Assembly (NCBI GenBank): GCA_951804945.1
Contig: OX638151.1
Location: forward strand, 66,464,001 to 66,528,000
Origin: Podarcis cretensis
Taxonomy: Eukaryota
Direction: 5' to 3'
Length of the DNA stretch: 64,000 nt
Shown: positions 27,271 through 48,649 of the stretch, piece after piece
Layout of the letters: every line of letters begins with the position of its first letter
Position numbering within the stretch: the stretch's first letter is position 1
Translations under genes and position numbers: made by a program
Notes under the pieces: model-generated
The model's input: only the letters and a program-made list of their open reading frames with translations
Databases searched by the model: none
Told to the model about the DNA's origin: nothing

Positions 27271-28678
27271 CTGAGTAAGGGTGAGAAAGGTGTTAGTATA
27301 TGCACAGCTATCTAAAATCCTTTCATCCCACAACTGAAAAAGTCAGAGATATGGCATTGGCGAGTAGCTAGCATTTTTAATTCATTGTTCTTGGCTTTCT
27401 GAAATGAACAAGACTGATTACATGACTCCTATACAAAAAAACCAGGCATTAATGGGGCAATATCCTTTAATTTTCTGCAGAATCACGTTGCTTAGGATAT
27501 TCTAAGGTTTAGATTACACAGAATGTGGGTCACAGTTTTCTAAGCTTAAGCAAAGGTGACAGAAAATGTGTGGTATAATAGCTTGCCAAATTACATTAGG
27601 AATATAGGAATATAAAATGTATTATTTTTCCTGGGTAGAACATATTTTCCACATCACAAAAGTGTGCTTTGAGATTACTATTGCTAGCATTTGTACATCT
27701 CTTGGACAAGAATGCAGCCATGTAACCTCTACTGTTCAATGATAAATCTGTTCTGTCAACTGATTTATTCTTTTTCCTATGCAAATAGATTCTTTTGTCT
27801 TCAACAATCAGGTAAACAGACACCTCTCCAAGACAGGCAAAGATTACACTTCTAATTTTTATTTTGTGTTTTAGATTTTTAGGAGATTTTTTTGTATTAT
27901 ATATAAATACAGTATACAGTTGCTGATTTTTTTTTTAAATAAAAAAGATGCATGTGGAATATTGGTGTGAAGGCTAGGTTGTAACATAAGGAGTTCACTC
28001 ACTGGGCCAGCATACAACCCACTGTGAAATGTGTCTTGATAGTGTGAGGAGAGGTTAGCACAGCCACATTACTACCAAGTTCTCTATGACACAAAGGCCT
28101 TGAACTGGCAGTGTAGAGATTCTTTTCTCAGAAACTCTTGTTCATGTTTCCTGGGTAGATGCCAGCAGCGATTGGTGGGGCTGGAACACTCACCTGACCT
28201 TCTGCTGCTGCTGCTTCCTTGGAGATAGAAGGTGGGATGGGGCAATGGCAGAATCAATCTGGTGTTCCCACCTGTGCCACTGCCCCACCATGACATTAGC
28301 TACAGGACTCAGCTCAGGCATTACTGGACCACCTTGGGACCTGCTTCCTCATGGATGGATGCATACCACTCTGGTAACACCTTGGACCAGAGAAACAGCT
28401 TGGACCACCTGAATGATGCTCCCCATGCCAGCATTGCTAGCCTCTGCAGATGGGCATTGCTGGGAAAGGAATAAGTTACTCAGCCTCAAAGGGGAGGTTA
28501 AGGATGCAGTTTTTGAACCGAGTACCTCAAGTCTTTTAAAGGACACCAGAAGCAAAATGCTCATCCTTGCCTTTTGTTCAGCGTGGCTACACCATGTGCC
28601 TGACAGTGGTGTCACGGAACACATAACTAACAATCCATTAGGGTTTTTTAAAAAACACAAAAAGTCGTCTTTACTTAC

Positions 28679-28834
28679 GGGACCAATTCTTTTAGTTGTG
28701 TAATTAATTGGCAATCCTCCAACATACAGCATCCCCACTACATCCAAAATGTCAGCTTTCTTTGGGCTTCTGGTCCTGTTTGTAGCACCATCAACTAAAA
28801 GGACACCTTCTTGCTTGGTTCGGAATATTTTTAT
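28679..28834 (-). CDS. LAMA2: LAMA2 exon ~61 (LG4)
   Basis: 156 nt; acceptor tttccag, donor gtaagt; IKIFRTKQEGVLLVDGATNRTRSPKKADILDVVGMLYVGGLPINYTTKRIGP. Confidence 0.96.
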
Positions 28835-29018
28835 CTGGAAAAAAGATAGAAGTTTAGTACATCGCTGCTGCCGCCACCGACACCACCACTATATCTAGGT
28901 TGCAATCCTATTCATACTGCTTGAGAGCAATCCCATTGAACACAGTGGAATTTACTTTTGAGTTAACATGCATATGATTTGGTTTGTGATGCAACATCCC
29001 TCATTTTTAACGAATGCT

Positions 29019-29376: not shown

Positions 29377-30477
29377 TTAAGTTACCTTCCTTTCACTTAA
29401 TAGGATCGCGTGCTGTCAGTAGCAGATGGCGTGGTGGCGATGTGCCACTTGACTGCTGGTTGGTCTTTTTGCCGCAGCTTACAGGAAGAGGCAGCAGGGA
29501 GGTTGACGTGGTGTGTTTGATCAAGGAATCTTGCCATTGCCACCTTGCCAGTCTCACTCTACACAACTTATGGGAGGTCGGATGAGTGGCAAGCCTCACC
29601 ACAGTGTCCTCTACTGTGTGCAGTGCAATCCTATGCATGTTTACTCAGAAATAAGTTCCACAATATTCCCTGGGATTTGCTTTGAGGTGACTATAGTTCT
29701 GCACCCTTAGACTGAAATCCTACACAGAAGTAAGGTCTATTGGTGTCTGCTTTTGACAAACACGCTCAGGATTGCACTGTTATATTCTGAGGACTGAGGT
29801 GCTTAGGAAAATGGCATGTATTAGTATAAAAACCACAGAGTTTTTATGACAACATTCTCCTGACTTGTGGTATTCCGAGGCACCCTCCCTCTAGCAGTGG
29901 CTAATAGCTATTGATAGTCTTATGTTCCATGAAATATTAGTAATGGTGTGGAATAGTACTGTTTGCTCTTTTAGAAAACACATTAATCCAAGTGAGCAAG
30001 CAAGCAGGCAGGGGCGAAACTGGCTGAGCATTCTGCTTTCAACAGAAGCCAATCAGAAGCTAATAACTAGGACTTCTGGTGAATAGCAACATTTGCAATA
30101 CACATGACATTTGTGTTTGAATAAACCCTATGAGAATATTCATGTGTCTCTTGTTTTGCTGCCTTCCTTGATTTGGATCAAGACTTTGCTCAAACTGGTG
30201 ACAGCTTCCTGCCAATCCCACCTTCCCCTATAGTTCCAGGCAATGTCCAGGAATCTGCTCTAGAGAGAGGGTTGGACTGGGGGGGGGATACTATCCACTT
30301 CTGCCAATGGGATCCATCCCTTCAATGGGTCAAAAATGTCAGAAGAAGTCATTCCATTTATGGACAGCTAAGATTCGATCCAATCTATTCCTTCTACAAT
30401 GCTCCCTCATTTGGGATTCCCTTCCCCGTTCCACATATAACCTAATTCTATAGGTGCTGACCATCATTGCTCCATAC

Positions 30478-30667
30478 CTTGTGCCACTGGCCATCATTGA
30501 TTTTCTCAGGAATCATTGTGCTGGTGTTCCCATGGCCCAGGTCATAACTGAAGTATGGAAAGCCATTCTTTATTTGAACGGTGGCAAAATCAGCATGATT
30601 GATCCGAGCCATATAGAAGAGCAACCCATTTTCAGCCTCAGTTCGGATTTCAAATTCAATGGTAAGT
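30478..30667 (-). CDS. LAMA2: LAMA2 exon ~60 (LG4)
   Basis: 190 nt; acceptor tgtatag, donor gtatgg; (K)LTIEFEIRTEAENGLLFYMARINHADFATVQIKNGFPYFSYDLGHGNTSTMIPEKINDGQWHK. Confidence 0.95.
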
Positions 30668-31114
30668 CTATACATTTGGAAAAAAGACCACAAAGTCGGG
30701 AAGCATTAATCTGCTTTATCTTTCACTCTTCGTCATAAAACTAACATCGCTAAAGGCAACATTATTTATAAGACAAATAAAACTAAGATACCCATTTCCT
30801 ATTTCTGAACTTGCCAAGGTGTATGGATACAGTATTCATGCACTTACTGCATAGACTTGATTTAGAGCTAGAACAATATCATCTTTATGTGGTGCAGAAA
30901 AATAAGGGATAAAAACTTGTCGCTATGCCCACAAAAGGCCAATAGATCATTTTAAGAGCAAACAGGTTTTCAGTTTACTGAACTGGATAGGTGTGAGTTC
31001 TGAGTAGAATGGGGTTAGCCATTCCATCATCCAAAAGCAAGTCTGGGTCCAGACCCTTAAATGAAAAACATAAAATAGATGAATTCAAACAATAATTAGC
31101 ATCCAAAGAACATT

Positions 31115-31940
31115 TGTCAGGGGCTCAGGAGCAGAGGCACAGGGAAGAGAGGAGATGGAGAGCGAAGGGGAAGAATCCGAGGGGAGCGTAGGAGAAGAGG
31201 ACAGTGGACCGAGGGATTCCATGAGCCTCTCCAGCGAATCGGAAGATTCACAGAAGGGGGCGCCAGTGGCCAGGGGTAGGGGGTTCCCAAGGGGAACGCC
31301 CCAGGAGCAAGGGGGCAGCAGGGACTCCCAGAGCAGTAGTTGGAAATCAGGACCAGCTTCACCACCAGAGCAGAGTGGGGGGGAAGAGTCCCAAGTATCG
31401 GGGCCAGTGCATTCCCCACCAGGGAGAGAAGACGAGGCAGGGCTGACCACGCCTCCATCAGAAAGTCAGACAACGGAGGGGAGGTCAGATCCGGCCAGTA
31501 TCCCGGAAGAGGGAAGCAGTGACTGAAGTAGTGTAACGGTTAGGAGAAAGGTCACTGGGTTGGTGCGAGAGGCAAGTTCAAATGTACAGGAGCGCGGGAC
31601 AGCAGAGAATGAGGTTTGGGAACCGGGTCCTAAAGCCCGCAGGAGGCAGGGGGAGGAGCTAAGCGACTCAGCGTCGGAAGAGTCCAGAAAGGGCAATGCC
31701 CCAGCGGGCAGGAGGACCCAGAGGAGGAGAGAGCAGCGGAAAAGGTGGAGCAGGGCTAGGATCTTAAACTGGTGTCAGAGGGGAGGAGACTCAGATGGGA
31801 CTTCGCCGATCTAGGGTTTAAGACGTAGAGCTGCGTGCTGCGGCTTTGAAATGGAAATTGAACTTCAATATAGACTTTTGTACATTACGACAGCCTAGCG
31901 TTGGTCCTCTGTGAGCTGGGACCTAGAGGCAGCTCTGACA
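31115..31940 (+). mobile_element. Solo LTR (826 bp) with an internal reading frame
   Basis: Termini TGTCAG...CTGACA; perfect 5-bp TSD ACATT (31110-31114 and 31941-31945); TATA-like TTTAAG at 31817-31822; polyA-like AATATA at 31867-31872; GC/purine-rich compared with the AT-rich intron. Confidence 0.85.
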
Positions 31941-32609
31941 ACATTAAAAAAAAAAACCATGGAAGACTCTGAGGCTGCCTTCTATATCCATAATTGAAAC
32001 TGAAACTGATGTTCTAAATATCAGTTTATATGTAAAAGTGTAAATTCATACTTCAAAATATTTACTGTAAAAAAGATTCTTAATAGTGTAATCCTATGTA
32101 TATCTCCCCAGAAACAATTCCTGTTGATGTTAATGATTCTTAGTCCCATAGGATTTAGTGTCTATAGGATTGCAGCTTTAAGTGCCCATAGATTGCAGTT
32201 TAAATAATTCTAGGAAATTAGTGACTTCCAGCAACACAGAAATGTTCTTGTCTGTGACTTGCTAAATATAGACCAATTAATTCTGTCTCCTTGGCACTTT
32301 TGCTTTATTATTATTTTTGCTCTGTTGGGCTTTTTCAGGAATGAGACACATATTAAAGAGCTACACTGATTTAGGAAAGGAGCTTCAAGTCTGGAATTCT
32401 TGCTAAGTGTAGCATCTAACGTTGTTGAGCTGAGTTTTAGAAGAACAAGAACATTTCAAACGGTCATTTTGTGCAGCATGAAATGAAGAGAAACTTGTAC
32501 AGCTCCTTCAATTGTGGCTGTCCTGCCTAAAAGCATGCCCAAGCATTACTCATCCCACACTACCACAATGAGTTTCACCACCATATCATCTCAAAAGTAT
32601 GGAACATAC

Positions 32610-46487: not shown

Positions 46488-46995
46488 AAACTCTGCAGGT
46501 ACCTAATAAGTGATGTCTGAAATGAGAATGGCGTGGGCGGAATTTACCTAACCAGCAGAAACCCTGTGCAGGGTCTTCCACTTGCCCGACAGTTTTCATT
46601 TTTCTGCAAACCCTCAAAATTGGCTCAGGGTGGAGGTGATTATCGCTCATAATTTTGTGTTATGCCACACATTCCTCCATGACAGCTATTTTGTAATTGT
46701 CTCCTCCAACACTCTCTCAGCTTTCAAAATGTGCCCACTAGTCCAAAATGTTTGGGAGCCTCTTGTCTAGGTGTACCAAATGGACCAAATGTCTGATATG
46801 TCAGCTTAATGAGATCCCTTCCCCTTCAAACTTTGATAGGAACAACTTTCAAGGAAACGTTCTGAATCTCCAACTTATTTCCCTTCCCACACAACATAAA
46901 GACAAAATAGTCCCTGCAGTGCAGGAGCTGAACAATATCTTTGGCCAATGAAGATGCGGCAAACAAGCAACCCAGTTTCTGGTATCATCCTGTAC

Positions 46996-47172
46996 CTGCC
47001 CAGTCTGCCTGCGCTTTCTCCGTGGGGGTACAGGCGCCCCACTAGTACCAAAGAGTATGATGCCAGATTCATTTCTGGTGCTGAAGGACAAGTGGATTTC
47101 TGTTCCCACATTGAGCGAGACTGGTGGCAGCTCCACAAAGCCCGGTTTTGGGAAGCTGACTGTGTAGATATT
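46996..47172 (-). CDS. LAMA2: LAMA2 exon ~55 (LG3 start, furin loop)
   Basis: 177 nt; acceptor tctgcag, donor gtacag; NIYTVSFPKPGFVELPPVSLNVGTEIHLSFSTRNESGIILFGTSGAPVPPRRKRRQTGQ. Confidence 0.96.
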
Positions 47173-48649
47173 CTGCAGAAAAGAAGGGACTGGATGAGTT
47201 TGACCCAGAACAGGAAAACTTTCTTGCAATAATAAACAGCTCAGCAGTTTACATTCAAAGTGCTGTGCAAACATTTGTCCATCTGTTAAATCACCCAATA
47301 TCAGAAAACATTTGGAAAAGTAGATTCAGCTAAAAAGAGCTGCACAGTCCAGTCTTGTTCCAGCATTATTATTTTGAGGCTTTGTACACAACACAGACTA
47401 TTCTGAGATCTGCAAGTACTCCTAACCAAATACATTTCCTAATATTCTTTTTCTTTGGGAGGGAGGTTGGTTTTTAAGTATGATGTGTGTGCATCCTGAG
47501 TCATGGAAGTCAGTTTGACAGGGAGCCAAAATTTTGGGGTCACATGGTGATGAAGCTAGTCATGGCTAGGGTCGACAAGTTGCAAGTCAGAGAGCACAGT
47601 ACCTTCAAAACCCCCAGTGCAGAGAGATGTGTGGGTTCTGCAGCCTCTTCCCCACTTCCTCATCTTACCACTTGCCCTCTTTCCCAACTGGCTGCTGTGA
47701 GTATGATTCCAAAGGGCCACATGTGCTGGACCGAGGAAAGAACAAGGAGAAAAACCCCCAAGGCTGCCTTCAGGGAGGATTTCCAAGAGATACCACAGGT
47801 CTCTGGGTTGCAGCCTGTTCACCCCAGTCATGGAAGTTGAACTGCAAACAGCCTCTAGGTCTTGAAACTAAAACAAGTTGTTGTTTTTAATCACAACCAT
47901 TTTCAAGACAGTTCCCTGCTTGTTAAAACACTGGTGGGGACTTGTCAATATGCAGAGAACTTTCTTGGAATTAAGTCACGTGCACAAAACCTTCCTGATG
48001 GTTACTGGTGATGGGAGTTGCCCAGCAGAAGATCTTCCACAATTCCAAAATGTAATATTAATGTATTTATTTACTGAATTATTCACTTGCTGCCTTTTTG
48101 GACACAGCCTAAAAATTATCCATTTTAATTCATTAATATACTTTCCCAGCCCTTCCTTGCCTCACTGGTATGTGACGTACTTTATGGAAGATCCAAATCC
48201 TGACAAGTGAGCCTGAGTTGTGGTGTTAAATCTGAATAGGATTCTGCTTCACACACTTTATGGTTATCTTTACCTGCCTTGTCCCCACAGTGTGGTTGCT
48301 TGCACTTTAAAACGAATCCGCTCATACATTAGGCTCCACTGTTTGTCATTGCCTTCCTATCTGGGCTAAGCACTTCAGCTCGTCTCCTGAATTCAACTCA
48401 TAAATAAGGCATGTACTGCCCATGGCTCTACAGCTCTCACACTGGGAGATATTAAGGTTGAACTGAAGAGGGGCTGTATGTCACAGAATATTGAATCGTA
48501 TTTTTAAAAAACATGAGATTGCTTAAGGACCGCTTGTACATACAGCATTATGATGATATTCAGGATTAATTCTGACCACAGTCTGCTAAGGACTACTTTT
48601 GTACAACTCACTGAAATGAAATGGTCTCATCTTGAAGATCAAAGAATAA

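Follow-up and report, generated by a model that had tools for sequence, protein, structure and literature searches.

MMTV sag and lentiviral nef are separate genes that overlap the U3 region of the 3′ LTR; they have their own start and are expressed from spliced or internal mRNAs. In group A of the plant CRM retrotransposons, it is the pol frame that enters the 3′ LTR, and the LTR is described as encoding a CR motif that replaces the chromodomain (PMC3059260, PMC3605345). Among other retroelements, the integrase C-terminus of Ty1 is described as large and disordered, with a basic NLS and a short, host-binding segment for targeting at its end (PMC9673352, PMC10050235), and PEG10 is described as a Ty3/gypsy-derived gene that uses frameshifting (PMC5009743). 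A U3 with several hundred coding nucleotides is not described for the sushi clade in the accessible parts of PMC3601003 and PMC5009743. More generally, we found no vertebrate element described as having a pol that enters its 3′ LTR in the full-text literature searched, which covers subscription papers, Repbase, and supplements thinly and is thus weak evidence of absence.

The locus studied here is a solo LTR of 826 bp at positions 31115–31940 (+ strand) of the window, a stretch of 64,000 nucleotides of Podarcis cretensis DNA. It belongs to a young, high-copy Ty3/gypsy family, probably of chromoviruses (family 1, 826-bp subfamily A). Its termini are TGTCAG at 31115 and CTGACA ending at 31940, and ACATT is found on both sides as a target site duplication (TSD; + strand, 31110–31114 and 31941–31945), so the sharp bounds and perfect TSD claimed for it from the sequence alone agree with inspection. 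No family-1 internal sequence was found within the 64-kb window. The LTR lies in antisense orientation inside an intron of the laminin alpha-2 (LAMA2) gene, of which an exon for an LG domain is at 30475–30678 on the − strand (matching the laminin alpha-2 chains 5ik7 and 1dyk at E 3.5e-39). LAMA2-like laminin G-domain exons were predicted on the − strand at 28349–28888, 30448–30705, and 46849–47325; the match was computed for the exon near 30500. Searching the same genome with the LTR gave 2588 first-look candidates, and the 40 matches that were scored are 98–100% identical. Perfect 5-bp TSDs were read by eye in 22 out of 29 sister LTR copies. Two sisters (L003 and L021) are inserted at nearly the same site in near-identical copies of another young repeat, in opposite orientations, and L003 has a duplication of about 40 bp in place of the 5-bp TSD.

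A single + frame of 232 codons plus a stop spans the LTR from 31116 to the TAG at 31812–31814 and occupies 85% of it. The two + ORFs that were originally listed separately are indeed parts of this one frame, open from the 5′ edge of the LTR and parted by a single TGA at 31524–31526 (+), after which the frame continues with SSVTVRRKVTG. As had been reported, the frame ends just before a TATA-like motif (31817–31822, +), which lies immediately 3′ of the stop codon and probably marks the U3/R border. The poly(A) signal site of the family is at 31867–31872 (+); it reads AATAAA at LTR nt 753 in the copy L095 and is changed in the window copy, where 31871 is private. Eight positions of the window copy are private when compared with the 29 sisters, and the premature TGA, suspected to be a decayed sense codon, is among them. 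In 24 of the 29 sisters the frame stays open as far as codon 232 or 233; four are frameshifted in one G-run, and one has a different stop. The G-run at 31370–31382, inside the frame, is an indel hotspot whose length differs in 5 of the 29 sisters. The window copy is a lightly decayed solo LTR, and the long frame is a trait of the family.

Full-length family-1 copies were located by a PPT-anchored pattern and by a pol-protein search (150 matches listed). They are about 6.7 kb long and have paired LTRs, between which a gag frame of 377 codons overlaps with the pol frame; no env frame is present between the LTRs of these copies, which contain gag and pol only. Pfam matches in gag are Retrotrans_gag, Ty3_capsid, and DUF4939, while those in pol are, in order, RVP_2, RVT_1, RT_RNaseH, Integrase_H2C2, and rve, followed by a Tf2-type SH3 module. 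The closest solved relative is Ty3 Gag-Pol. A chromodomain-like segment lies upstream of the PPT; its Chromo match is degenerate in family 1 (E 0.011, 16.1 bits vs the 25.1 cut-off), and the chromodomains of sister families 2 and 3 are above the cut-off (E 1.5e-15 and 7.9e-11). The gag/pol overlap contains the heptamer G GGA AAC, which we take to be a PEG10-type −1 frameshift site. No tRNA-type TGG primer binding site was found after the 5′ LTR in families 1–3 (L095:1480-1530 and the equivalent segments of L164 and L217). Self-priming is known from the Tf1/sushi group and, given the lack of a TGG site, is possible by analogy for families 1–3. The elements resemble the sushi and PEG10/RTL1 lineage in having Retrotrans_gag, DUF4939, the PR-RT-RH-IN-SH3-chromo order, and a gag/pol overlap with this heptamer, and the LTR ends roughly fit the Sushi/rGmr1 consensus TGTYANR or TGTNANR ... 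CNTNACA (PMC3601003, Table 3). The LTR had been assigned to a lizard Gypsy/ERV-type family; the Gypsy half of this assignment is borne out by the Ty3/gypsy pol order and the paired LTRs, while the ERV half is contradicted by the missing env and TGG-type primer binding site.

Family 1 has two LTR subfamilies, 826 bp and 759 bp long and about 80–87% identical. Nine of the listed pol matches are on contig C1 with an equal score (5.5e-97) and an open frame of 1561–1563 codons. In three C1 copies (L091, L092, and L098; 1561–1563 codons) the two LTRs are 99.7–100% identical, which suggests that the 759-bp subfamily was active very recently. One full-length copy, on C18, is flanked on one side by an extended degenerate tandem array that is GC-rich and contains open frames rich in Pro, Ala, and Gly (L039:7029-9901), and on the other side by another internal fragment of family 1 in inverted orientation.

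In 11 of 12 full-length copies, which include both subfamilies and are a biased sample since they were chosen for long frames, pol is open into and through the LTR frame, so that the in-frame fusion is observed directly. The reading order in the open copies runs from protease to chromodomain, followed by an acidic linker of about 150 residues, the PPT (…EGGMD/VRGSG…), and the LTR frame up to its own stop. The fused pol frame is 1591 codons long in the 826-bp and 1563 codons long in the 759-bp subfamily. Among the top 30 copies by similarity, 26 had a detectable LTR start; full read-through was seen in 4 of these 26, and 4 more enter the frame and then stop early. None of the first three full-length copies examined is in frame, pol entering the LTR in another frame, and the net indel at the pol/LTR junction is in frame in only 12 of the 30 top-similarity copies. 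Because the junction is often out of frame, the element may not fully need the tail, or may obtain it in trans. At 35 loci, 34 of 50 frameshifting indels are within runs of at least 5 bases, which make up 9% of positions; 29 of them are in the last 40 nt or so before the LTR, and their place and sign vary. Judged by this distribution, the junction indels appear to fit slippage or assembly error better than a programmed shift. A programmed +1 frameshift at the PPT was considered and dropped, since neither the position nor the sign of the junction indels is constant and young copies keep the frame.

The fusion is also present in databases. Of four UniRef matches, two from Podarcis muralis (P0027 and P0028) have RT and integrase fused to the whole tail, with 55–57% identity, and the fused form occurs in the Logan protein P0011 as well. 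These fused proteins are already in UniRef as automatic predictions under automatic names, and the named database relatives are all Podarcis proteins. A loose PPT plus TGTCAG pattern gave 72 matches, mostly by chance; among the 20 loci fetched, a long LTR-type frame was seen only in L054, which is two nested LTRs. Four contig sets of uncertain type, guessed to be RNA, cover the element including the LTR; GT..AG joints are 0 among the 15 listed of 16, which says nothing either way. Our main reading, to which we assign a probability of about 85%, is that the LTR frame is the last 230 or so codons of pol, read in frame across the PPT and through some 700 nt of the 3′ LTR, and that it likely forms a long disordered acidic arm of the integrase with an Arg-rich end helix for nuclear import or chromatin tethering.

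For pairwise omega, real copies of one subfamily were compared with real copies of the other in three pairs, which are not mutually independent. The tail gave 0.35–0.40 (kappa 1, equal rates) or 0.47–0.54 (kappa 4), with bootstrap intervals below 1, and 0.36–0.48 after removal of CpG-touching codons. For comparison, omega was 0.32–0.49 for the pre-LTR linker, 0.08–0.22 for the enzymes, 0.22–0.31 for gag, and 0.8–1.8 for the other two + frames of the LTR. Each cluster of tails contributed a single sequence to a codon model (8 of the 93 open tails of family 1 and 10 of the 29 tails of family 3). Against omega = 1, 2dL was 40 for family 1 and 55 for family 3, with best overall omega values of 0.5 and 0.4, respectively; omega fell to 0.2 and 0.15 in the final 45 codons and was 0.6 in the rest of the tail. 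As a control for the bias from choosing open frames, seven old solo LTRs of family 4, likewise picked for open frames, gave omega 1.0 and 2dL 1.0. Between four subfamily representatives, net indel lengths within the frame are divisible by 3; indels of a single base are located at or past the stop. The tail is thus under purifying selection family-wide. The sequence-only reading had proposed dN/dS below 1 and frame-preserving indels between subfamilies as signs of a real coding region, and both were found (tail omega about 0.5, intervals below 1).

Several other explanations of the frame were weighed. The same reading had cautioned that the + strand is T-poor and that long frames might open by chance. 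The T content of the LTR is 14%, and 3000 mono-, di-, or trinucleotide shuffles of the natural sister LTR L002 gave a median frame of 91–123 codons; the first piece of 136 codons is unremarkable, being reached in 231–1030 of 3000 shuffles. However, a + frame of at least 219 codons was reached in 6–11 of 3000 shuffles of the whole LTR and in 2–24 of 3000 shuffles of the first 700 nt, at most 24 in any set. Since the frame is fused to pol in full-length copies, omega below 1 is confined to one + strand frame, and the codon model agrees, we regard a chance opening as refuted and its probability as negligible. An antisense frame that shares third codon positions might instead be the coding strand. 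In most 759-bp LTRs it stays open over some 210 codons, and its omega is 0.47–0.58, but one or two stops interrupt it in 57 of the 93 tails of family 1, stops also occur in 29/29 family-2 and 28/29 family-3 tails, and it is joined to no known gene. As 16% of codon shuffles of the sense frame also leave it with zero stops, its openness is explained by sense codon use and its omega echoes the sense signal, making a coding antisense strand very improbable. The proposal made from the sequence alone was an accessory gene, a sag- or nef-like protein that starts at the ATG at 31155–31157 (+) via splicing or internal initiation and replaces the Pol fusion or exists alongside it. This ATG has a strong Kozak context and is kept in 87 of 93 open tails in the genome, a further in-frame Met lies just 5′ of the LTR where the junction reads GMDVR, and many copies have an open LTR frame with a shifted pol junction. 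However, among nine database relatives that cover the site, the Met is replaced by Thr, Ile, or Leu in seven and retained in two (P0002 and P0030), and omega is equal on either side of the LTR edge. A candidate splice acceptor upstream of the LTR was rejected because, in all three copies that were read, the pyrimidine tract there has CAA instead of CAG at its end. In full-length copies the ORF starts upstream of the LTR, is continuous with pol, and ends at the same stop. The frame therefore resembles sag and nef in covering the U3 of a 3′ LTR and differs from them in its continuity with pol. Thus the ATG is an internal Met of the tail, and we consider a separate gene unlikely; the 219-codon ORF said to run from this ATG is real as a frame, counting 232 codons from the LTR edge, and its proposed start is not supported.

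The same layout is present in three families. Family 2 has a 646-bp LTR that starts TGTGATGG, and a canonical chromodomain. Its pol extends 117 codons into the LTR in two of three full-length copies and ends RRRELVAPRRSARLKAR; the P. muralis protein P0007 ends as this tail does. In family 3, 4 of the 6 copies fetched have some 100 codons of pol inside the LTR, as do 5 of 30 loci of a separate set. Family 4 was seen here as solo LTRs only, and 7 out of 20 keep a frame of 126–127 codons from the same LTR position. At one locus (L060:8606-9590, G000:C3:101830105), a family-2 LTR is nested in frame within a family-4 LTR, giving a chimeric open frame of 230 codons. The LTRs of the families do not align mutually, and Pol identity is 45–57%. 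In families 1–3, 54–85% of the LTR is coding and the most basic 20-mer of the tail is close to its C-terminus, and families 1 and 3 have R..RRxExRxR......LxW in common. Compared by layout, the entry of pol into the 3′ LTR in families 1–3 makes CRM the closest precedent. However, the CR motif of CRM replaces the chromodomain, while the lizard elements keep one upstream, degenerate in family 1 and canonical in family 2. They also have a linker and 100–232 LTR-encoded residues after the chromodomain, and their host is an animal and not a plant.

The N-terminal part of the tail is acidic and its C-terminal part basic. A structure model of the family-1 tail (P0001), built from 4 sequences and of low confidence (mean pLDDT 51), is disordered except for a predicted helix at residues 186–209 (pLDDT about 59–67). 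In the window, the Arg-rich C-terminal segment RRTQRRREQRKRWSRARILNW, encoded at 31710–31781 (+), is the sole predicted helix and the most constrained part of the tail. No Pfam match was found for the tail, the ESM Atlas gave no usable match for its last 70 residues, and CK2-type sites are not enriched over shuffles. A profile search with the C-terminal motif returned six proteins, four of which are related tails, and no match was placed outside lizards; P0012, also matched by this profile, is an unrelated Cys-rich repeat protein. In the mechanism we propose, a −1 shift at G GGA AAC would yield Gag-Pol, and the protease would free an integrase composed of the SH3 (GPY/F) module, the chromodomain, the acidic linker of about 150 aa, and the LTR-encoded tail. 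The tail would be translated only from the 3′ LTR of the full-length RNA. U3 is copied into each LTR, and solo LTRs would therefore bear a passive copy of the tail, like the one in the window, which lies 5′ of its presumed promoter, on the strand opposite to the host gene, and has decayed. Coding in U3 would be cheap for the element because the stop directly precedes the TATA-like motif and the full-length RNA has U3 at its 3′ end.

On its flexible arm, the helix might serve as a nuclear-import signal or a chromatin tether. By analogy of function, the nearest model is the integrase end of Ty1, although Ty1 is a copia element in which this end lies inside pol before RT and outside the LTR. Given the fusion, the chances are about even that the tail is an NLS or a general DNA or chromatin binder; an anchor for the nucleosome acidic patch and a tail with little specific function are each rather unlikely, and some other role would be less probable still. 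The acidic-patch idea comes from RRSARL, a nucleosome-binding motif described for HMGN and Dsup (PMC12487698). The family-2 tail end contains exactly RRSARL, a six-residue match that may be convergent or due to chance, whereas family 1 has RKRWSRARIL and no exact RRSARL. A more specific version is that the lizard LTR encodes a second chromatin tether, convergent with plant centromeric retrotransposons, in which an arginine-anchor helix on a disordered arm would bind the acidic patch, replace the degenerating chromodomain, and steer integration to chromosome ends; this we find doubtful. Among the 150 family-1 pol matches listed, 63 are within 1 Mb of contig ends vs 2.5% expected, and for family 3 the enrichment is weaker (18 of 150). 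Since near-identical LTR-only matches are not enriched there (1/40 and 0/37), this crowding is as well explained by retention as by targeting. The tail might also be a tolerated read-through that followed loss of the pol stop, with selection keeping only an innocuous, soluble, and stop-free extension that binds nothing in particular. The omega of about 0.6 outside the last 45 codons, the varying tail length (100–232 codons across families), the T-poor composition, and the frequent junction frameshifts are consistent with this. However, mere read-through would not select against stops, omega falls to 0.15–0.2 over the last 45 codons in two families, and R-R-x-E-x-R-x-R-x(6)-L-x-W is common to families whose LTRs cannot be aligned. 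We therefore consider tolerated read-through unlikely and prefer an integrase tail that ends in a constrained helix.

The layout is already known from plant CRM, and what is likely to be new is that lizard chromoviruses combine a chromodomain with a long integrase tail encoded in the LTR. Such repeats need to be interpreted differently when 85% of the LTR is protein-coding. Open frames of about 210–230 codons are present in thousands of solo LTRs and could mislead de novo gene searches, and LTR-borne frames account for the Podarcis 'hypothetical proteins' P0005, P0006, and P0010. The short constrained motif of the integrase tail, present in several young lizard families, is a candidate for a part in nuclear entry or site choice when the chromodomain decays.
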